In this document: positions 13,099-23,224 of the stretch, in pieces
Position numbering within the stretch: the first letter of the stretch is position 1
Layout of the letters: the number at the start of each line of letters is the position of its first letter
NCBI GenBank assembly: GCA_019057635.1
Contig: DXJL01000104.1
Coordinates: forward strand, 43,512 to 107,511
Length of the DNA: 64,000 bases
Source of the DNA: Candidatus Heimdallarchaeota archaeon
GTDB lineage: Archaea > Asgardarchaeota > Heimdallarchaeia > Hodarchaeales > Hodarchaeaceae
Reading direction: 5' to 3'
The notes under the pieces: generated by a model
What the model was told of the DNA's origin: nothing
What the model saw: only the letters and a program-made list of their open reading frames with translations
Databases searched by the model: none
Made by a program: the position numbers and the translations under genes

Positions 13099-14382
13099 AT
13101 GAATACCAATAAAAATTACTCTTTTTCAGATCTTTTTGGTTCTCATCCAACAGTTTTTCGCGAAGATGATGGTGATGTAAATCAAGGAGAAAAAGTGTTT
13201 ACATCTTCATATACACCTCATTCTATCTGGCATCGGGAAGATGAAATGAAAGCCCTTGTTTCATATTTTAAATCTATCATCACAAGTCCGACTGCTTCTT
13301 CAAAGAAAGTAATTCTTTATGGACCAGTGGGGACTGGAAAAACTGTCATCTCCCATGCTTTTGGAACTGAATTGACAACTTATATAGCTAAAAATCGTGA
13401 TCATGGAGAGCCGAGATTTAGATATTTTCATATTAATTGTAGGAAGACTAAAACTCCACATCTCATTCTAACAACCATCCTAAGATATCTAGTGTCAGGA
13501 TTTCCCTTGAGAGGGTTTAGTGTAGATGAATTATTACGAATGTTCACCCTCTTACTATATGAACAGAACTTAACAGTGCTCCTTGTCTTAGACGAAATTG
13601 ATTACCTGTTACCTGAGGAAAGGACTGACTTTCTTTATTCTCTTTCCCGATTAGAAGAATCACCTATTATTAGAGAAGAATTCGAGCTTTCTCAGGACCG
13701 TTTAGAGTCCCGTTTTAATCTTCTCACGATTACTCGGGATAAGAATTTCCGTTATTATTTAGATACTTCCACCGCTTCATCTTTAGGTCGCAATTATATT
13801 ACATTTGCCCCATACACTCGGTATCAACTATTCGATATACTAGCAACCCGAGCAGAGCTGGGGCTATGTGAAGATAGTTATAGCGATGAGCTACTAGATA
13901 CAGTTGCCAGTCTTGCAGAAGAAAAAGGTGATGCTAGATTTGCTATTGAACTTCTTTGGAGAACTGCAAAAATTTGTGAAGCCGAGGGAGAAAAAAAACT
14001 TAGTACAGAGCATGTTAGACGAGCAGTTGTGGAAGTACTACCAATTGAAAAATCAATAATTGATGATTTAAACACCCACCAAAAACTTGTGTTGCTCAGT
14101 ATTGCCCGTCTTCTTTCGGTTTGCAATCAGTCATTTGTAACTACTCTCGAAGTAAAAGGGGAATACGAAAGGGTGTGCGAAGAAGCAAGTATACGTAGTA
14201 GACGGCAAACACAAGTATGGGCATATCTAAAGGATTTAGGTCGACTTGGTTTAATTCAACAAGAAGTGGAAAATCGTCATACTAATGGTCGGTCTTTAGG
14301 ACGAATTTCAACCATAAGGATTCGTGACTTACCGACAGAGGAAATTATCACTTCCCTTGGATCTTTGTTGAACGGAGACTAA
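13099..14382 (+). CDS. cdc6: Orc1/Cdc6 replication initiator
   Basis: Walker A GPVGTGKT, HINCR, Walker B LVLDEID, GDARFAIELL, C-terminal winged helix. Confidence 0.95.
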   Translation: MNTNKNYSFSDLFGSHPTVFREDDGDVNQGEKVFTSSYTPHSIWHREDEMKALVSYFKSIITSPTASSKKVILYGPVGTGKTVISHAFGTELTTYIAKNRDHGEPRFRYFHINCRKTKTPHLILTTILRYLVSGFPLRGFSVDELLRMFTLLLYEQNLTVLLVLDEIDYLLPEERTDFLYSLSRLEESPIIREEFELSQDRLESRFNLLTITRDKNFRYYLDTSTASSLGRNYITFAPYTRYQLFDILATRAELGLCEDSYSDELLDTVASLAEEKGDARFAIELLWRTAKICEAEGEKKLSTEHVRRAVVEVLPIEKSIIDDLNTHQKLVLLSIARLLSVCNQSFVTTLEVKGEYERVCEEASIRSRRQTQVWAYLKDLGRLGLIQQEVENRHTNGRSLGRISTIRIRDLPTEEIITSLGSLLNGD

Positions 14383-14393
14383 AAGAGAAGAGG

Positions 14394-15491
14394 TTACATC
14401 CCAAAGCTCAATGCAACATATATCCAATCAACGGCAAACCAGATAATTGCTCCAAGTACTGCAGTTACTGGAACGGTGACTACCCAAGAAATAACAATTG
14501 TATTCACCATTTTTCGTTGAATTGGTAATCTTTCAGCCCAACCAACGGCAATCATTGCGGCTATAAGAACATGGGTTCCACTTAATGGAAAACCAGCCAA
14601 TGTTCCTATTGTCATAACTAGCGTCACAGCTACCATGGCCGACAAAGCCGAACCTGCATTCATTGAAACGATTTCCTTCGCAACAACTTTGATAACTTTC
14701 CAACCAACCAAGATTAAACCCAAAGCCATCCCCACCCCCCCAATAATCATTAAATATTCAGTAAAGGTTCCAGGAGAGGTACTATCATTTAGAATCTGTA
14801 ATGATAAAACTGGGGCGATAGAGTTCGCGACATCATTCCCAGCTCGAGATGCGGAACTCAGTATTAAAAAAAAACTAAGCAGATATGTATAAACGCGATC
14901 TAAACGTTCTCGCTCGGTCATTTGAAACCCTACCGCTTGTTCCTCATCTATATCCTTTTCTTCAATGTCTTCCAGTTTTTTGGTAAAATAAGTCTCCTCG
15001 AATCGCTGTAACCAGAACTGAACCGTTGAAGCAGCAAAAAATCCAATTATTGGACTTAAAATCCAGCCTGCAGCAATTTCTGTAAGTTGCCAATAATCAA
15101 CTGAGAAAACACCCCATTCTGGGGATTTCAATCCTGCAACTACACATACACCAATTATCGCACCAATCACCTATTGTGTGGTTGAGATAGGTAAACCCTC
15201 AGCTATACTTGTTGATACAAGAACGATTATCATTGCTATCAATATTGAAATTATCATAGGGTCAGTTAAAACACGATTTCCTATCAAATCTTTCCCTATT
15301 TTCTAGGCAACAGGTGCACCCATAAGAAACGCACCTAGAACACTAAAGATAGCTCCAAGAATTACAGCCGTACGCAATGTAAATACACCCGAAGCAATAC
15401 CAGGTGCCATCATTTCATCATTTGTACCTGCAGCAAAAGCTACAGCGAAAGCCATGGCAAGGGCAAAAAGAAAAATGATAACTTCAATCAA
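14394..15491 (-). pseudogene. PiT-family inorganic phosphate transporter with two in-frame TAG codons (pseudogene or amber readthrough)
   Basis: One frame, 365 codons: GTNDE...GAPVA*KIGKDLI...GLPISTTQ*VIGAIIG...AGNDVANS...GFPLSGTH. TAG at 15305-15303 and 15173-15171. Confidence 0.85.
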
Positions 15492-15500
15492 AGAGCGCCC

Positions 15501-16181
15501 TCATTGCCCATATTTTACTGTCATAACTTGAATATAATCAGATGTTTGTTCAGCTGCTTCTGCAACGACAATCAAACTAACGGATATCTTATAGCAATAA
15601 TATGCATCTTTGGCATCATAATCAGGTGAATTTATCCTCCCAAAAATATGGAAATCTAAATCTCGCGCTTCTTCACGGGTACTATCTACCTTCCCTGCAT
15701 ATTTTCTTGCCTTCTCGTGATCCGCATCAACATATTTTAGTGCATCTTGTAAAAAATCAGTGCACTGATGTACTTTCTCTGCTAAAATCGGCATCTCATG
15801 GGGAATTCTCTGTGGAAAATCCTCCCGAGCGACAAGCCGACGGATTACTACTTCTGTTTTATTGACAATATTATCCATATGTCGGACTAACCGATGTCTA
15901 TCTTCTGTTGCTTGCGGTAGGTATGCTCCCTTAGAGAAAATAGTGTCTATCAACTCTTCTTTAATGTCGTCGCATCGACGTTCGGCTTTCACAATTTCAT
16001 CCTTTAAATGCATAATCTTTGATCGAGCTTCTGGATCTTTCTCATGATTTGACCAAATAATAATTGCATCAGCTAGTTTAGCTGAAGCTATTTGTAATTC
16101 CTTTGCTAATTGCACAAATAGCTCCTCGCCTCGTTTCCACAGTTTTTTATCTCTTCGAAATAACAAAAATTCACCATCCAC
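15501..16181 (-). CDS. DUF47 / PhoU-like phosphate transport regulator
   Basis: ERRCDDIKEEL...F...EDRHRLVRHMDNI pattern; directly upstream of the PiT gene, the usual pairing. Confidence 0.85.
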   Translation of the reverse strand: MDGEFLLFRRDKKLWKRGEELFVQLAKELQIASAKLADAIIIWSNHEKDPEARSKIMHLKDEIVKAERRCDDIKEELIDTIFSKGAYLPQATEDRHRLVRHMDNIVNKTEVVIRRLVAREDFPQRIPHEMPILAEKVHQCTDFLQDALKYVDADHEKARKYAGKVDSTREEARDLDFHIFGRINSPDYDAKDAYYCYKISVSLIVVAEAAEQTSDYIQVMTVKYGQ

Positions 16182-16356: not shown

Positions 16357-17325
16357 TTGTCAAAAGAAAAAGAGTTCTTAATTCAAGATTTAACAATTGA
16401 TGATGAGTATGATACAATTTCAGCCAATGCTTCAGTACAAGAAGCGGCATTAAAAATGAAGGAAAAAGGAATTCCGGATTTGGTTGTCCTTGATGACGAT
16501 AATATGTATCAGGGCATCATAGCTGATTTTGATATTGTAACTGGCTTGGTTGCAGAAGGGTTATCCGTGGATAAGTCGAAAGTAACCGAGATTATGTACA
16601 CAATTGACCCAGTCACAAAAAATACAACAGTATCCGATGCTTTTGCTCGTATGAGAGACTTAGATGTATCAGTCGTTCCTGTTGTAGAAAATAATGAAGT
16701 AATCGGAGTTGCTACGATAACTGATTGCTGGGGATTTTTACCTGAAAAGTATGAAGACCAAAAAGGCCTTATACCTGTTTCTAATCCTCGATTTGCAAAT
16801 TATAGTTTTACCATTCTTATGTCGGTGTTATACCTATTTTTCGGGATTTTTGCTCCCCTTATAGGTATTGTTGGTTACCTAAAAGCACCGATTGCAAGCC
16901 AAGGGGGTTTCACAGCCACGTACTATCTTTTTGAGGCTCGAGGAGCTAGTTTTTGGATCCGATATACAGACATCCAAGGTCAATTTAACTTTTTATGGCT
17001 TTCCCTGTCAATCTTTGGGGTTTTATTTATCGTTCTTGGTCTTGTAAGCATTTATGCAATTTTCCAATGGGCATATGCAGATTATAAGATGATTAAAGTC
17101 AATCGAAATTGGCATGCTATTGGTACATTATTAGGTCTGTTAGGAATTATAGTAGAATGGCTATTCTTTGTTTCTTTCATTCTGATGGATGTCCTACGTG
17201 TTTCTAGTACTCAAATTGATTTTGGTGGATTGTTATTCTCAGTTATAGCCATAATTTGTCTACTCGCAGCCGTTTCTCGTGACCTTGTATTCCGCGAAAC
17301 GTCCGCCACACCCGAGGAGGAATAA
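16357..17325 (+). CDS. CBS-pair protein fused to a four-TM membrane domain
   Basis: Two CBS repeats (SVQEAALKMKEKGIPDLVV; TVSDAFARMRDLDVSVVPVV) followed by four hydrophobic segments. Confidence 0.8.
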   Translation: MSKEKEFLIQDLTIDDEYDTISANASVQEAALKMKEKGIPDLVVLDDDNMYQGIIADFDIVTGLVAEGLSVDKSKVTEIMYTIDPVTKNTTVSDAFARMRDLDVSVVPVVENNEVIGVATITDCWGFLPEKYEDQKGLIPVSNPRFANYSFTILMSVLYLFFGIFAPLIGIVGYLKAPIASQGGFTATYYLFEARGASFWIRYTDIQGQFNFLWLSLSIFGVLFIVLGLVSIYAIFQWAYADYKMIKVNRNWHAIGTLLGLLGIIVEWLFFVSFILMDVLRVSSTQIDFGGLLFSVIAIICLLAAVSRDLVFRETSATPEEE

Positions 17326-17329
17326 AAAA

Positions 17330-19012
17330 ATGCCTCGTGGTGGTGGTGGATTTCGAGGCGGCGGAGGGGGCGGTTTTCGCGGTGGTGGTGGGTTTAGAGG
17401 TGGAGGTTTCCGAGGTGGAAGCCGAAGCTTCCGAGTAGGCTCAGTAAGAAGCTCAGGACGTCCATTTGGCCGAACTGGTTCTCGTCGAACTGTTTCCCGG
17501 GCTCCACGATCTCGTCCAGGAAGAAATTATCATCGCAGACGTCATCGACGTTATTGGGGTGGTTATTATCGGCCATGGTATCGTCGATGGTGGCATTGGA
17601 ATTGGTGGTGGGGATATCCATACCGAAGATGGTATTATGCACCTGTTTATTGGGGTGGTGGTGCAGTGTTTGGTATCATTGCCCTACTTGTAATTTTGCC
17701 AATAATTGGTATGGCCTTTATTCCTTATCCATTTGCTAGTAGTAATGCAACTGGAACAGTCACATATCAGGATACACAGACTATTTGGTATAATGAGTAC
17801 TGGTATGAACGAGAACCGATGCAAGAAGATCAAATAATCGATTATAGTGTCGAAGCAACGTCTAAGGTGACGTTTTTAATTTGGGATCAACCGTTTGAGA
17901 ATTTACCGCAAGACCAAGACTTATCTGGGAGCTATTCTGAAAGTATAGTTGTTCAGGCTGATCATGACTATGAATACATTGGGTACTTCTTAAAGCCTGG
18001 TTCTGAATTAACCTACCAATTTAACGTGACCTTAGGCGGTGATATCGAATTCTTTGTTGCTGATGCAAATGCCCTTAATCGTTGGAACAATTGGGAGACA
18101 ATAATACCCGAGGATTCCTACACTGGCTCTGAATCCTATGAGAATAACTTTGTGGTTACCTATGCCCAAGATTGGTACTTAGTATGGTACAACCCGACGG
18201 CTTCACCAATTCAGATAGATTTTGTAGTAGATTATGTTGCCACGGACAATATTGATATCTCTGCAGCTGAGTATTATATTGAAGATGTCGAGGATCGACA
18301 ATCTGATACATTTCCTGTGCCCAGAGATGGCACCTGGTATTTCTTCATATATATGAATCCATTTGTCAACTCTGAAGAATCTGTAGACATTACTTTTGAG
18401 GTTCGGTATAATACAGAAGTGACTTACGAAGACCATTGGAAGGATGCAAGGCCAGTTTTGTTCATTATAGGCTTTATTGTTGTCCTAGTTCTCATAGTGG
18501 CAGTAGTTCAAAGAAAAAGTTCTAAGAAAAGTGCAATTGCAGCAGCCACGAGTACAGGTACATCATCAACACAGACTGCTACAACTACTACGGCCCCGTC
18601 ACCTCAAAAGACTGAGTGTCATCGATGTAAAGCGGTTTATAGACCAAGTGATGTCTTTTGTACAAATTGTGGGGCTAAACTTCATGGGCGTGACTATGGT
18701 ACACCTAAAGCGACAACTCCTGCAAATTCTAAATGGTGTAAAAATTGTGGTGATACTTTGAAGTCAGATAGTCGTTTCTGTAAGAATTGTGGAACACCAG
18801 TCGAGCAGAAGTCCGAATCTCACAAATTTTTCCCTGATGAAAGAAAATCTTTCTTTTGTCAATTAGACAATGAGCAGCATCCCTCAACTGACTCTGCTTA
18901 CCAATGTGATCAATGTTCACGAATGGTTTGTGCGAATTGTTATGATGACATCGGAAAAACTGGCATCAGAGTTTGCCCCTATTGTAAAGGAAATCTAAGT
19001 AAAGTTCAATGA
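17330..19012 (+). CDS. RGG-rich, two-TM protein with zinc ribbons and C-terminal RING-like finger (APD1-4-like architecture)
   Basis: Likely start is ATG 17330, just after the upstream stop; FRGGG repeats, TM, beta-rich domain, TM, four CxxC pairs, then CxxD-x12-CxxC-x4-CxxC-x11-CxxC. Confidence 0.8.
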   Translation: MPRGGGGFRGGGGGGFRGGGGFRGGGFRGGSRSFRVGSVRSSGRPFGRTGSRRTVSRAPRSRPGRNYHRRRHRRYWGGYYRPWYRRWWHWNWWWGYPYRRWYYAPVYWGGGAVFGIIALLVILPIIGMAFIPYPFASSNATGTVTYQDTQTIWYNEYWYEREPMQEDQIIDYSVEATSKVTFLIWDQPFENLPQDQDLSGSYSESIVVQADHDYEYIGYFLKPGSELTYQFNVTLGGDIEFFVADANALNRWNNWETIIPEDSYTGSESYENNFVVTYAQDWYLVWYNPTASPIQIDFVVDYVATDNIDISAAEYYIEDVEDRQSDTFPVPRDGTWYFFIYMNPFVNSEESVDITFEVRYNTEVTYEDHWKDARPVLFIIGFIVVLVLIVAVVQRKSSKKSAIAAATSTGTSSTQTATTTTAPSPQKTECHRCKAVYRPSDVFCTNCGAKLHGRDYGTPKATTPANSKWCKNCGDTLKSDSRFCKNCGTPVEQKSESHKFFPDERKSFFCQLDNEQHPSTDSAYQCDQCSRMVCANCYDDIGKTGIRVCPYCKGNLSKVQ

Positions 19013-21769: not shown

Positions 21770-22819
21770 TTGATATTGGACAACATTGATTACAAAATTG
21801 TGGAACTTGACATGGGACAGGGAGGAAAGAAAATGGATACTCTCCTTGAATTCATAACAAATCGTATTAAAATAAAAAAAGTTTCTGATGAGGGAATTGG
21901 AGTTGAATCATTCGATGATGGAGCAATTATTCCCTTACCCAATCGATCAATCGATTTGGTACTCACAACTGATTCTTTTACTGTCTCACCATTATTCTTC
22001 CGTGGAGGGAATATTGGTACATTAGCCGCAGCTGGTACAATAAATGACCTTCTCATGATGGGAGCCAAACCTATTGCAATGACATTGGCACTCGTAATAA
22101 GGGAGGGGTTAAAATTCGATGTTCTAGCCAATATTATTGATACAATTGCGGAAATTACCGAAAAATTTAAGATTGCCATAGTTGCAGGTGATACCAAAGT
22201 CATGCCTGTAGGTTCGATGGATGAAACTGGATTAATAATAAATACTACTGGCCTGGGGGAGATACCAGCAGGACAACGAATAACTGACAGTTCAATTCAA
22301 CCAGAGGATATTATATTAACAACAGGCACGCTTGGAGATCATGGATTTGCCATGCTTGTGACGCGAGAGGGAATTGAGTTAGAAACAGAATTAAAATCTG
22401 ATGTTGCGCCATTACAATCCTTAATTCAACCCATTTTACAATATCGTATACATGCAATGAAAGATCCTACTCGCGGAGGCCTAACAGGTGTTTTAACTGA
22501 ATGGGCAATGAAATCGAAAGTGTCAATTTGGCTTGATGAGAAGTCTCTCCCAATTTCTGATGATGTCCAAATTATTTCTGATATATTTGGAATTGACCCT
22601 TTGCATGTTTCCTGCGAAGGAAAAGCGATCATCGCCGTTCATCCAGAAGATGCTGATAAGGTCTTGAGTTTATTAAGATCTAATCCTTTAGGCATTCATG
22701 CGGCAATTATTGGAAAAGTAAAAAACTCTCGAAAAGGACGAGTATTTCTTAAAACTGTTATAGGTGGACATAGAATATTGGATAAATCTGTCGGTGAACC
22801 GATTCCGCGTGTTTGCTAA
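21770..22819 (+). CDS. hypE: Hydrogenase maturation protein HypE
   Basis: GQGGK, TTDSFTVSPLFFRGGNIG, GDTKV, MKDPTRGG, C-terminal PRVC. Confidence 0.95.
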   Translation: MILDNIDYKIVELDMGQGGKKMDTLLEFITNRIKIKKVSDEGIGVESFDDGAIIPLPNRSIDLVLTTDSFTVSPLFFRGGNIGTLAAAGTINDLLMMGAKPIAMTLALVIREGLKFDVLANIIDTIAEITEKFKIAIVAGDTKVMPVGSMDETGLIINTTGLGEIPAGQRITDSSIQPEDIILTTGTLGDHGFAMLVTREGIELETELKSDVAPLQSLIQPILQYRIHAMKDPTRGGLTGVLTEWAMKSKVSIWLDEKSLPISDDVQIISDIFGIDPLHVSCEGKAIIAVHPEDADKVLSLLRSNPLGIHAAIIGKVKNSRKGRVFLKTVIGGHRILDKSVGEPIPRVC

Positions 22820-23073
22820 GATTGTTGTAGAGAGTTTCTTCCCTCTTCCTCTGATTTCCAAAGCTCCTCCCAAAGATCTAATGTTTCCTTCGCTTCTTCT
22901 GGAGACATTTTTGAAACAGCATAACCCGTATGAATGAGAATCCAATCTCCAACTTGAAGTTCCTCACCTAATAATGCAATACTTACCTCTCTTTTCACTC
23001 CACGACCGAAATCTGCAATGATAAGATAGTCTTCTAGGAATTCTTGAACTTGTGCTGGTATGGCTAGACACAT
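22816..23073 (-). CDS. hypC: Hydrogenase maturation chaperone HypC
   Basis: MCLAIPA N-terminus (start ATG 23073), VGDWILIHTGYA. Confidence 0.95.
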   Translation of the reverse strand: MCLAIPAQVQEFLEDYLIIADFGRGVKREVSIALLGEELQVGDWILIHTGYAVSKMSPEEAKETLDLWEELWKSEEEGRNSLQQS

Positions 23074-23224
23074 TGTAGGAGGAACCATCCGAATAATTGG
23101 ATGAGAGAGATGAAAAATGAGTGAGTAAAAAATATTATGGCCTATTTTTCAAAGGAAGTCTGTTGGAAGCAGTTATTACTCCGTCCGATACCCCATCGAT
23201 CAATCTCAATATTGAGGTAAGTAT

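Follow-up and report, generated by a model that had tools for sequence, protein, structure and literature searches.

A Two-Pass APD-Like Membrane Protein with a RING-Like Finger as a Candidate Ubiquitin Ligase of an Asgard Archaeon

A gene on the forward strand (17330..19012) of the 64,000-nucleotide stretch of Candidatus Heimdallarchaeota archaeon DNA analyzed here (i.e., the window) encodes, based on the list of open reading frames and its translation, a two-pass membrane protein of 560 aa plus stop, which combines an ectodomain that, as judged from profile comparisons, is a homologue of the lumenal domain (APD1-4_N/M) of eukaryotic APD proteins with a C-terminal finger of the RING superfamily. 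We give an even chance to the reading that this protein is a membrane-anchored RING-type ubiquitin ligase, in which the finger was probably added to an older, APD-like Asgard scaffold. Ubiquitin, E1, E2, soluble RING E3s, and ESCRT are known from Asgard archaea; to our knowledge, the selection of membrane proteins for ubiquitination in these archaea has not been described. The window protein, which carries a eukaryote-type lumenal/extracellular recognition domain on one face of the membrane and a RING-like finger on the other, would be a candidate for this selection and may, going by its sequence, represent an archaeal precursor of ubiquitin ligases anchored in membranes. A literature search found nothing linking APD, DUF4792, or DUF4793 to archaea; supplements of published papers may list the protein.

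Gene Start, Domain Order, and Membrane Topology

The ATG at 17330 is the likely start codon because all 26 aligned orthologues begin at the position of the MPRGGGG motif or within three residues of it; a longer version of the gene starting from a GTG at 17279 is possible. From the N-terminus, the protein contains an Arg/Gly/aromatic tail, a first transmembrane segment (TM1), the ectodomain, a second transmembrane segment (TM2), a Thr-rich linker, a double zinc ribbon, and the finger. The original prediction had read a transmembrane segment, a beta-rich domain, a second transmembrane segment, a Thr-rich linker, zinc ribbons, and a finger from the DNA; all of these were recovered by hydropathy, AF2 modeling, and inspection of the sequence, and every Cys motif that it listed was found at the predicted spacing and is invariant in 27 of 27 sequences. 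These sequences make up a genus alignment whose members are 56–72% identical to the window protein and in all of which (27/27) the seven finger Cys, D513, H517, and the eight ribbon Cys are invariant, indicating that the motif pattern exceeds chance. Homologues of the window protein numbered 227 at E ≤ 0.001; among the 120 homologues listed, all source names shown were Asgard-type, and the closest homologues carried Hodarchaeales-type labels. An NCBIfam scan of the window protein yielded noise only, and a search of the sequences of solved structures with the whole protein gave nothing usable.

TM1 (about aa 110–134; 17657..17731, forward strand) lies in a hydropathy span of about aa 103–138 and is conserved and hydrophobic in the alignments, and TM2 (about aa 376–398; 18455..18523, forward strand) lies in a span of about aa 370–398 that is followed by QRKSSKK. 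The N-terminal tail (aa 1–108; 17330..17653, forward strand) consists of RGG/FRGG repeats and then a W/Y/R-rich stretch beside the membrane; its 108 residues include 26 R, 27 G, 10 W, and 10 Y, with K, D, and E all absent. In conservation, the tail matches the remainder of the protein, with many columns invariant in the 27 sequences. This tail had not been described in the original prediction. The Thr/Ser/Ala-rich linker that follows TM2 (aa 399–428; 18524..18613, forward strand), which is putatively cytoplasmic, varies in length and sequence in the alignment. The N-terminal tail and the zinc-binding C-terminal tail are on one side of the membrane and the acidic beta-sandwich is on the other; by the positive-inside rule, the N-terminal tail is probably cytoplasmic, and both tails would therefore be on the cytoplasmic side. 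Since the protein is archaeal, the ectodomain would face the cell exterior rather than a lumen.

An Ectodomain Homologous to the Eukaryotic APD Domain

The extracytoplasmic domain (aa 136–375, about 240 aa; 17735..18454, forward strand) was modeled by AF2 as all strands with a pLDDT of 87.5 and is acidic (45 D/E vs. 9 K/R). Profile matches and hhalign place a core homologous to APD1-4_N/M, with a GOLD-like sandwich, at about aa 201–371 (17930–18442, forward strand). The resemblance of the middle domain to APD proteins, which the original prediction had proposed, was borne out by several lines of evidence. In the window protein itself, Pfam APD1-4_N matched aa 204–234 with 16.8 bits (E = 0.0055), which is below the gathering score of 27, and APD1-4_M (gathering score 25 bits) had no match; two of four Lokiarchaeial orthologues scanned exceeded the APD1-4_N cut-off (P0045, 29.1 bits; P0053, 29.0 bits), and the other two fell just below it (P0071, 26.9 bits; P0064, 24.4 bits), with a faint 12-bit match to APD1-4_M in one Lokiarchaeial orthologue only. 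When 400 Asgard genomes were scanned with APD1-4_N, 31 had matches at E ≤ 0.001 and 11 had matches over the cut-off, as compared to none of 14 controls.

Profile A3, built from 29 ectodomain sequences, matched 144 of 1.84 billion proteins at E ≤ 0.001, including eukaryotic proteins with APD1-4_N/M. One of these, P0173 (A3 match at E = 7.3e-10), exceeds both Pfam APD cut-offs, has a EukProt source label, and has eukaryotic APD clusters as its nearest Atlas clusters; another, P0260, is a canonical APD protein (163 and 137 bits for the two APD domains, respectively) matched by A3 at E = 8.3e-4. Among 85 distant A3 matches scanned, APD1-4_N was found in 22, APD1-4_M in 21, and EMP24/GOLD (EMP24_GP25L) in 16. 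The set A5 (85 sequences) comprises the A3 matches P0164–P0262 minus 14, i.e., six fragments or family-like entries as well as P0166–P0171, P0174, and P0185; P0241, P0244, and P0256 are also among the omitted entries. Of the eight entries omitted by name, P0166 is a zinc-ribbon family member by scan, and the other seven were never scanned with Pfam. An hhalign comparison of A3 with A6, a profile that was itself built from matches of the A3 search, gave a probability of 99.3% (E = 1.8e-20) over 158 columns, which cover the N domain of P0173 together with part of its M domain. A search of sequences of solved structures with the ectodomain profile gave no matches at E ≤ 10, and a Protein Atlas search with the window ectodomain returned leads below 0.9 only, to unnamed bacterial and archaeal clusters and to one archaeal cluster with EMP24 in 19% of its members.

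The fold of the ectodomain model is GOLD-like, in agreement with the GOLD check proposed for the middle domain. Foldseek matched the model to the GOLD domains of p24/TMED and SEC14L proteins with a probability of 1.0, with TM scores of 0.64–0.78 for the small p24/TMED targets; these matches include 5azw (p24beta1; E = 4.2e-6, TM score on target 0.78), 7rrm (TMED1; TM score 0.77), 5gu5, and the GOLD domains of SEC14L3/4. Pfam EMP24 had no match in the window protein. Two proteins among the relatives, P0184 and P0207, carry a homologous GOLD-like ectodomain fused to a canonical RING-H2. A homologue search with P0184 returned only P0184 itself, and a genome search with it matched 252 of 400 Asgard genomes, mostly through its zinc-ribbon/RING-H2 tail; these tail-dominated matches do not support the whole P0184 architecture as Asgard. 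To call the ectodomain a "sensor", as the original prediction did, is a guess.

A C4C4 RING-Like Finger Confined to One Genus

The finger (aa 508–556; 18851..18997, forward strand) was delimited by ligand invariance, the AF2 model, Foldseek, and profile A8, and has the pattern C-x2-D-x12-C-x2-C-x4-C-x2-C-x11-C-x2-C (C510-Q-L-D513-x12-C526-D-Q-C529-x4-C534-A-N-C537-x11-C549-P-Y-C552-K), with C510, D513, C526, C529, C534, C537, C549, and C552 as its proposed zinc ligands. These data indicate that it belongs to the RING superfamily and is a C4C4 variant in which ligand 2 is Asp. The AF2 model of the finger (pLDDT 81.7) retrieved RING or related U-box-type E3 and spliceosome domains in the first 13 rows of the Foldseek results (probability 0.94–1.00), with the RINGs of Bre1, Cbl, RING1B, and RNF4 as top matches (TM scores of 0.51–0.58 and rmsd of 2.3–3.6 Å in most rows); the E-values of these matches are weak (0.03–0.2), and ZZ and U-box domains match too. 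Profile A8, which contains 29 fingers (10 of 18 orthologue fingers and 19 of 20 fetched paralogue fingers, with L085 left out of the latter as a near-duplicate of L084), matched 1WEO, a cellulose-synthase RING-type domain, at E = 1.9e-5 along the full finger (positions 17–65 of 68), 8vi0, a cellulose-synthase zinc domain, at E = 3e-4, and Bre1, TRIM37, TRIM32, Ring1B, and Cbl at E = 3e-3 to 1e-2. In the proposed comparison of the C-terminal finger with RING domains, the finger modeled like RINGs in Foldseek, at weak E-values, and A8 matched 1WEO.

No Pfam RING family reached its gathering score in the window finger or in the family fingers. The window finger scored 23.1 bits for zf-UDP (cut-off 27.1) and 18.6 bits for zf-RING_4 (cut-off 27), and the best E-value over all finger members was 1.1e-5, for both families. 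Always below the cut-off, zf-UDP matched 18/18 orthologue fingers and, as the commonest Pfam match, 20/29 family fingers, and zf-RING_4 matched 18/18 and 12/29, respectively; zf-C3HC4_3 matched five of 18 fingers at E ≤ 1 (best E = 0.0072) and one of 29 at E ≤ 0.01. Across the 29 family fingers, ligand 2 is Asp in 24 and Cys in five, and ligand 6 is lost in three fingers, all of which have Cys at ligand 2; this covariation is consistent with a cross-brace site composed of ligands 1, 2, 5, and 6. L512, I541, P550, and K553 would sit at the E2-contact and linchpin positions of RING E3s, which hints at a putative E2-binding and ligase activity. A complex prediction for the finger (A4) with the best-scoring E2 (A7) and two zinc ions, carried out without controls, gave no answer (both scores 0.00; mark 0.32) and counts neither way. 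Two other assignments of the finger were dropped; a FYVE or lipid-binding finger had Pfam FYVE matches at E = 0.036–0.063 only and showed no basic FYVE motif on inspection by eye, and a B-box reading had weak matches only.

The finger occurs only in a single archaeal genus and forms an expanded family there; in the genome that contains the window, it is also fused to LRR, to an extracellular WD40 with a TM segment, and to other modules. Fusion to varied modules is a way in which RING E3 families diversify. Most orthologues have no finger, so that the conserved core function of the family needs no RING; none of the 11 Lokiarchaeial loci examined has it, nor do two orthologues labelled Hodarchaeales and Heimdallarchaeota LC_3. 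Because the finger occurs in this genus only and orthologues elsewhere end after the zinc ribbons, the RING end is probably a separate, lineage-specific gain rather than an inheritance from the APD architecture.

These data also bear on a second reading, which we regard as possible though less probable than a ligase, namely that the protein is a non-catalytic receptor or scaffold, i.e., a p24-/APD-like adaptor whose finger serves protein–protein or self-association, as in cellulose synthase. The best profile matches of the finger are to cellulose-synthase zinc domains (1WEO and 8vi0, with zf-UDP as the commonest Pfam match), which serve oligomerization and are not known to be E3s; other Asgard lineages keep the same scaffold without the finger; and the ectodomain has the GOLD fold, which in p24 proteins is a cargo-binding module. 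However, the great majority of the finger's structural neighbors are active RING E3 domains, the fusions of the finger family to LRR and WD40 resemble those of E3 families, and the genome contains a full ubiquitin system.

Cytoplasmic Tails and the Neighboring CBS-Domain Gene

The double zinc ribbon (aa 430–488; 18617..18793, forward strand) consists of two C-x2-C-x10-C-x2-C units (C430-H-R-C433...C444-T-N-C447 and C470-K-N-C473...C484-K-N-C487) and matches Pfam DZR with 37.8 bits at aa 430–488, over the gathering score of 27.3. Its eight Cys show no variation in either the genus alignment or a cross-Asgard alignment, and the ribbon is the sole cytoplasmic domain that is retained across the whole family. 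Together with the finger, it would be expected to give the cytoplasmic tail (aa 399–560) four Zn. The C-x2-C-x10-C-x2-C spacing had raised the possibility of NZF-type ubiquitin-binding ribbons; this assignment was dropped, as Pfam gives DZR and the Asn/Trp positions of NZF are not conserved.

Immediately upstream, a gene (16357..17325, forward strand) encodes a membrane protein with a CBS pair, as identified by Pfam CBS (57 bits), hydropathy, and tblastn; 4 nt separate its end from the start codon of the APD-like gene, and its product has three hydrophobic spans, the last of which is long enough for two helices. By tblastn, all 30 loci have this gene as a neighbor of the APD-like gene (partial where the locus ends), and no conserved regulator gene was present beside the pair within about 1.5 kb of flank in the loci examined.

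The tails and this neighbor suggest a third, improbable reading, in which the protein would act in transmembrane signalling or sequestration, with the ribbons, finger, and RGG tail holding nucleic acid or a regulator that is released when the ectodomain senses an outside cue; this model resembles a membrane tether of the anti-sigma type or an RNA-binding protein fixed to the membrane. In its favor are the family-wide retention of the double zinc ribbon alone among the cytoplasmic domains, the RGG/aromatic tail (26 R, 27 G), as eukaryotic RGG tails are RNA-binding, and the tight linkage to a CBS-domain membrane protein, as CBS pairs commonly sense adenosine ligands. However, the window protein matched no DNA- or RNA-binding family in the Pfam and NCBIfam scans, the lack of a conserved regulator gene in the flanks examined speaks against a released regulator, and both the RING-like fold of the finger and the expansion of the finger family are left unexplained.

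Ubiquitin System and Proposed Role

The genome yielded two ubiquitin, five ThiF/E1-like, and four E2 matches, so that the components for which the original prediction proposed a search are all represented; they include a GG-ended ubiquitin, and the clusters concerned are on contigs C20, C150, and C82. On the three points on which that prediction was open to refutation, we found a finger that models like RING domains, APD similarity of the middle domain, and a ubiquitin system. The APD-like gene lies outside both ubiquitin gene clusters of the genome, and the finger showed no significant similarity to the two finger proteins of these clusters in pairwise BLASTP (E = 0.59 and 0.078). The ESCRT/ubiquitin cluster has a finger protein of its own as well as a UEV-like one. 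This, along with the finding that the retrieved eukaryotic APD-cluster relatives mostly end in Pro/Tyr-rich tails rather than RINGs (Pro/Tyr-rich tails recruit separate HECT ligases), would suit a protein that is itself a ubiquitination substrate or ubiquitin receptor, i.e., cargo-like, with a tail recognized by soluble Asgard RING E3s or by ESCRT/UEV. The tail after TM2 does contain 16 Lys, but nothing ties these to modification and the RING-like fold of the finger is unexplained, and we hold this to be the least likely of the readings considered.

If the protein is a membrane-anchored RING-type ligase, its ectodomain would bind a ligand outside the cytoplasm or the exterior portion of a membrane protein and its cytoplasmic finger would recruit a ubiquitin-charged E2; by combining these two activities, it could mark itself or neighboring membrane proteins for ESCRT- or proteasome-linked handling, with the always-adjacent CBS-domain membrane protein as one possible partner. 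The finger would probably have been added, in the lineage of the genus, to an older Asgard APD-like scaffold that ended in zinc ribbons.

A broader, tentative reading, which we hold to be less likely than not, would derive the eukaryotic APD family from an Asgard membrane protein that already had the full layout (Gly/Arg/aromatic tail, TM, APD/GOLD ectodomain, second TM, and zinc-binding tail). In the Hodarchaeales-type lineage, this scaffold would have been joined to lineage-expanded C4C4 RING fingers, also present on LRR and extracellular WD40 receptors, and outside recognition would be coupled to inside ubiquitination in these archaea. If true, it would supply a missing input step for pre-eukaryotic, ubiquitin-dependent ESCRT sorting of membrane proteins. 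Whether or not the window protein is a ligase, the APD family joins the eukaryotic trafficking and ubiquitination proteins with clear Asgard relatives, a poorly understood plant and animal family gains a prokaryotic model, and an expanded, genus-specific finger family on varied recognition modules offers an archaeal example in which E3-like diversification can be tested.

Comparison with Known Systems

The eukaryotic APD family (PF16040, APD1-4_N; PF16041, APD1-4_M) shares with the window protein a homologous ectodomain, two flanking TM segments (from hydropathy here and from an alignment of the APD cluster), N-terminal tails rich in G/R (G/R/H) and aromatic residues, and a cytoplasmic C-terminal tail tied to ubiquitination, with the retrieved relatives having PY-rich tails or zinc ribbons. 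Plant APD1-4 proteins have a C-terminal RING of the C3HC4 type, whereas the window finger is of C4C4 type with an Asp; in addition, the window protein, unlike the APD family, has an extra double zinc ribbon, and its ectodomain would be outside the cell instead of in a lumen. The likeness to plant APD1-4 drawn in the original prediction holds for the ectodomain and the two TM segments; at the RING end, where the finger is C4C4, it probably reflects a separate acquisition.

A second type of Asgard APD-like family (type 2; about 370–413 aa; loci L102–L105) shares with the window protein the RG-rich tail, TM, APD domain, second TM, and zinc ribbon; in tblastn, it connects with both the window protein (E = 1.3e-11) and the eukaryotic P0173 (E = 2.6e-15) and so forms a link between the two. 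Type 2 proteins are closer to Pfam APD1-4_N than the window protein is (scores in the protein scan: L102, 34.1 bits; L104, 26.3 bits; L105, 25.0 bits; cut-off 27), and four of four type 2 loci were over the cut-off in the genome scan; they have a single long-spaced ribbon without a RING-like finger and no CBS neighbor within about 1 kb.

The ligand spacing of the window finger matches that of 1WEO/zf-UDP and of the NOT4-type C4C4 RING (zf-RING_4), but the second Cys is replaced by Asp and an invariant His-Pro follows the first ligand pair, and those RINGs occur in a protein context unrelated to that of the window protein. The RING E3s encoded in Asgard/archaeal ubiquitin/ESCRT operons come from the same phylum and would have the same presumed partners (E1, E2, and ubiquitin); a preprint describes an Asgard E1/E2/RING E3 cascade as reconstituted (bioRxiv 10.1101/2023.07.25.550441). 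These E3s are soluble and encoded within ubiquitin operons, whereas the window protein is membrane-anchored and encoded elsewhere. The p24/TMED cargo receptors share the beta-sandwich (Foldseek; TM score on target 0.77–0.78, rmsd 2.3–3.2 Å). While p24 proteins cross the membrane once and have a coiled coil as well as a short tail that binds COPI/COPII, the window domain is larger and lies between two TM segments in a protein with zinc-binding tails.

Gene Product, Topology, and Conserved Gene Pair

The gene at 17330–19012 (+ strand) of the window encodes a conserved two-pass membrane protein of 560 aa, as counted from the ATG in the ORF list and translation. A GTG located 51 nt 5′ of this ATG would lengthen the ORF; the ATG is the likely start because all 26 aligned orthologues begin no more than three residues from MPRGGGG. 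The protein begins with a tail of 108 residues (17330–17653, + strand) that contains 26 Arg, 27 Gly, 10 Trp, and 10 Tyr, and no Lys, Asp, or Glu; this tail, which was absent from the original prediction, includes near-invariant stretches common to Asgard orthologues. A hydropathy scan identified two hydrophobic spans (residues ~103–138 and ~370–398), separated by an acidic loop (45 Asp/Glu vs. 9 Lys/Arg), and the region following the second span is basic and Cys-rich. From the positive-inside rule and the requirement of zinc fingers for a cytoplasmic environment, we infer a cytoplasmic location for both tails and an outward-facing loop. The translation also contained, at the predicted spacing, the Cys motifs of two zinc ribbons (CHRC…CTNC and CKNC…CKNC) and the C-terminal motif C510-QL-D513-x12-C526-DQ-C529-x4-C534-AN-C537-x11-C549-PY-C552-K.

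A word-indexed protein search identified 227 homologues at E ≤ 0.001. The nearest (56–72% identity, ~550–570 aa) carry source names of Hodarchaeales, Heimdallarchaeota, or Promethearchaeota MAG proteins, and a second tier (~40–45% identity, ~480–500 aa) carries the names Lokiarchaeota, Hermodarchaeota, or Promethearchaeota. An alignment of 27 full-length sequences shows no variation in any zinc ligand, in D513, or in H517, and much of the N-terminal tail is likewise invariant. By six-frame search, the ectodomain was detected in 156 of 400 genomes of the phylum, many of them incomplete, including 18 of the 21 further genomes from the window's genus, 96/135 in family f20, 11/14 in f19, and just 1/31 in f4. 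Two proteins of the same ectodomain family presented other arrangements by eye: P0123 (875 aa) has a long TPR-like N-terminal region before the aromatic stretch and first transmembrane (TM) segment, and P0124 (652 aa) has WD40/beta-propeller-like repeats after the ectodomain.

Just 4 nt separate the APD-like gene from the gene immediately upstream (16357–17325, + strand), whose product combines a CBS pair with three hydrophobic spans; its membrane part matched no Pfam family. This upstream gene adjoins the APD-like gene in all 30 loci from the genus and from Lokiarchaeia, with 36–99% identity, and the two therefore represent a conserved gene pair. Other ORFs in the vicinity, annotated by eye, include an Orc1/Cdc6-like AAA protein (13099–14382, + strand), adjacent 258- and 62-aa membrane ORFs that may be one transporter in pieces, beside a 226-aa ORF (14394–16181, − strand), and ORFs resembling the hydrogenase-maturation proteins HypE and HypC (21770–23088).

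Homology of the Ectodomain to Eukaryotic APD Proteins

The ectodomain is of the APD/GOLD type and is homologous to that of the eukaryotic APD family. While the window protein itself presented a weak match to Pfam APD1-4_N (16.8 bits; cut-off 27), two of the four Lokiarchaeial orthologues scanned were above the cut-off (P0045, 29.1 bits; P0053, 29.0 bits) and the other two slightly below it (P0071, 26.9 bits; P0064, 24.4 bits); one of the four also presented a faint APD1-4_M match. A profile built from an ectodomain-only alignment of 29 sequences taken from genome loci yielded 144 matches at E ≤ 0.001 among 1.84 billion representative proteins, most of which have no taxonomy. The nearer matches comprise members of the family and shorter variants with zinc ribbons. 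Among 85 distant matches selected from rows P0164–P0262 and scanned, Pfam identified APD1-4_N in 22 (best E = 1.2e-48), APD1-4_M in 21, EMP24/GOLD in 16, and zf-RING_2 in two. These include P0173 (profile E = 7.3e-10; source label EukProt), which is above both APD Pfam cut-offs and lies nearest, in the Atlas, to eukaryotic APD clusters that are commonest in Streptophyta and Mollusca, as well as P0260, a canonical APD protein (163 and 137 bits; profile E = 8.3e-4). Alignment of the profile with 22 APD-cluster proteins by hhalign gave a probability of 99.3% (E = 1.8e-20, 158 columns); these 22 proteins were drawn from the profile's own hits and the two alignments are not fully independent, but the Pfam labels are. 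The proposed APD similarity of the middle domain is borne out, and the motifs named in the original prediction as APD-like (YEY..YFLKPGS and DWYLVWYN) sit inside the aligned core. The AF2 model of the ectodomain is all-beta (pLDDT 87.5), and Foldseek matched part of it to the GOLD domains of p24/TMED and SEC14-like proteins (probability 1.0, TM on target ≤0.78, rmsd 2.3–3.2 Å), in agreement with the suggested GOLD likeness.

Full-text searches for DUF4792, DUF4793, and APD1-4, covering main texts (supplements may list the protein), returned, among the papers listed, plant papers plus one unrelated sensor-array paper, and a search for "aberrant pollen development" with "archaea" returned nothing but unrelated plant work. 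In the passages covered, Makarova and colleagues' ESCRT survey describes GOLD domains near archaeal ESCRT systems and does not mention the window's family; a structure-based survey of Asgard signature proteins from 2026 contains no GOLD, APD, p24, TMED, or "ubiquitin ligase" in its main text.

The C-Terminal Finger

The window protein carries a double zinc ribbon followed by a genus-restricted finger of the RING superfamily. The finger was found in all 19 loci of the window's genus but in none of 11 Lokiarchaeial loci; two shorter orthologues (source labels Hodarchaeales and Heimdallarchaeota LC_3) also stop after the ribbons. In six-frame searches of the 400 genomes, the finger profile matched 44 at E ≤ 0.01, including all 21 other genomes of the genus (3–11 matches each), with weak matches only outside the genus; the finger is therefore an expanded family restricted to this genus. 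The window's genome contains six matches in five open frames. The four other frames (contigs C203, C111, C60, and C58; loci L078–L081) are a 368-aa frame with a tandem pair, a 137-aa frame, a leucine-rich-repeat protein with the finger at its N-terminus, and a WD40-like protein with the finger in its cytoplasmic tail, preceded by WD40-like and Asp-rich repeats and a TM segment; the leucine-rich-repeat and WD40-like assignments were made by eye.

Pfam zf-UDP and zf-RING_4, the cellulose-synthase RING and the NOT4-type RING, matched all 18 orthologue fingers (best E = 1.1e-5), with every score under the cut-off. Against solved structures, the profile of a 29-finger alignment matched the cellulose-synthase RING-type domain 1WEO over the whole finger (E = 1.9e-5), followed by further cellulose synthases, aS34, a ribosomal protein of archaea (8e-4), and, at 3e-3 to 1e-2, TFIIH p44, TRIM37, Bre1, Ring1B, TRIM32, and Cbl. 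The match to aS34 (PDB 9fhl chain a), a 72-residue small-subunit protein, spans its whole length including a CPYC ending (E = 0.011 with the orthologue-finger alignment and 8.3e-4 with the 29-finger alignment). For the AF2 model of the finger (pLDDT 81.7), the best Foldseek matches were the RING E3 domains of Bre1, Cbl, RING1B, RNF4, and CTLH/GID (probability 0.94–1.00, TM 0.51–0.58, weak E values of 0.03–0.2); ZZ and U-box domains were also among the matches.

Ligands 1, 3, 4, 5, 7, and 8 are invariant in the 29 fingers, while ligand 2 is Asp in 24 and Cys in five, and ligand 6 is Cys in 26. All three fingers without a ligand-6 Cys have Cys at ligand 2, a pairing that fits a zinc site formed by ligands 1, 2, 5, and 6, i.e., a cross-brace. 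These three are close paralogues, and their pairing may therefore represent one evolutionary event; two more paralogues show the same pairing by eye. The RING claim of the original prediction is supported by the 1WEO match and fits the Foldseek matches, but the finger reached no curated Pfam family threshold; we place it in the RING superfamily, nearest to the C4C4 types.

Ubiquitin System and Possible Function

The genome of the window (3.19 Mb, 214 contigs, 91.6% complete) contains a complete ubiquitin toolkit, with two ubiquitin, five ThiF, and four UQ_con Pfam matches, which answers the original question of whether ubiquitin, E1, and E2 are present. One cluster (contig C150, L043) includes two ubiquitin-like genes, E1, E2, a JAMM-type deubiquitinase (by eye), and, as its last gene (L043 6177–7289, + strand), a multi-TM protein that carries a Cys/His-rich finger at its C-terminus, has no Pfam match at E ≤ 0.01, and represents a second candidate membrane-anchored E3, inside a ubiquitin operon. 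An ESCRT/ubiquitin-type cluster (contig C20, 16000–33000; L042) includes a GG-ended ubiquitin carrying a 3-residue extension, E1, an E2 of 150 aa, a UEV-like member of the E2 family that is greatly extended at its C-terminus, two ORFs resembling small GTPases, and a 448-aa protein whose N-terminal part bears a Cys-rich finger, all annotated by eye except the Pfam-matched ubiquitin, E1, and E2. The APD-like gene lies outside both clusters.

We infer that the cytoplasmic finger may recruit E2, and the window protein would then be a membrane-anchored E3 coupling recognition on the outer face of the membrane to ubiquitination on the inner face. L512, I541, P550, and K553 would occupy the positions of E2-contact and linchpin residues in RING E3s; the cellulose-synthase domain, which is not a known ligase, is also hydrophobic at the equivalent positions. 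The main rival reading is a non-catalytic adaptor in which the finger serves association. A preprint describes a reconstituted Asgard E1/E2/RING E3 cascade in which the E3 is soluble (bioRxiv 10.1101/2023.07.25.550441).

Comparison with Eukaryotic APD Proteins

The APD1-4-like architecture of the original prediction holds for the homologous ectodomain between two TM segments, but most of the family has no finger, and the RING end is probably convergent with that of plant APDs. Because most members are without the finger, we place the ancestral function in the ectodomain together with the ribbons and the CBS partner. Two metagenomic proteins (P0184 and P0207) combine an RG-rich tail, a TM segment, a single GOLD-like domain related to the window's ectodomain, a second TM segment, and a tail made up of a zinc ribbon plus a canonical RING-H2; this tail by itself matched 252/400 Asgard genomes, with up to at least five matches per genome.

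The APD1-4_N model matched 31 of the 400 Asgard genomes at E ≤ 0.001 (11 above the cut-off) and none of 14 control genomes. The top matches (35.7 and 37.3 bits) are f19 proteins of ~370–413 aa. They belong to a second Asgard APD-like family (type 2; L102–L105 in genomes G135, G137, G139, and G140 of f19) with an RG-rich tail, a TM segment, APD1-4_N, a second TM segment, and a single zinc ribbon with long spacing; in the genome scan all four loci were above the cut-off, and in the protein scan one of three was above and two were slightly below. In tblastn searches against these loci, the eukaryotic P0173 gave E = 2.6e-15 and the window protein E = 1.3e-11. By sequence, the type 2 family is nearer than the family of the window protein to eukaryotic APD proteins, and it bridges the two. 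Several eukaryote-type APD-cluster proteins also have a Gly/Arg/His-rich and aromatic N-terminal tail before the first TM segment, and C-termini in this cluster are Pro/Tyr-rich tails or zinc ribbons; the likeness between Asgard and eukaryotic proteins therefore goes past one domain to the overall layout.
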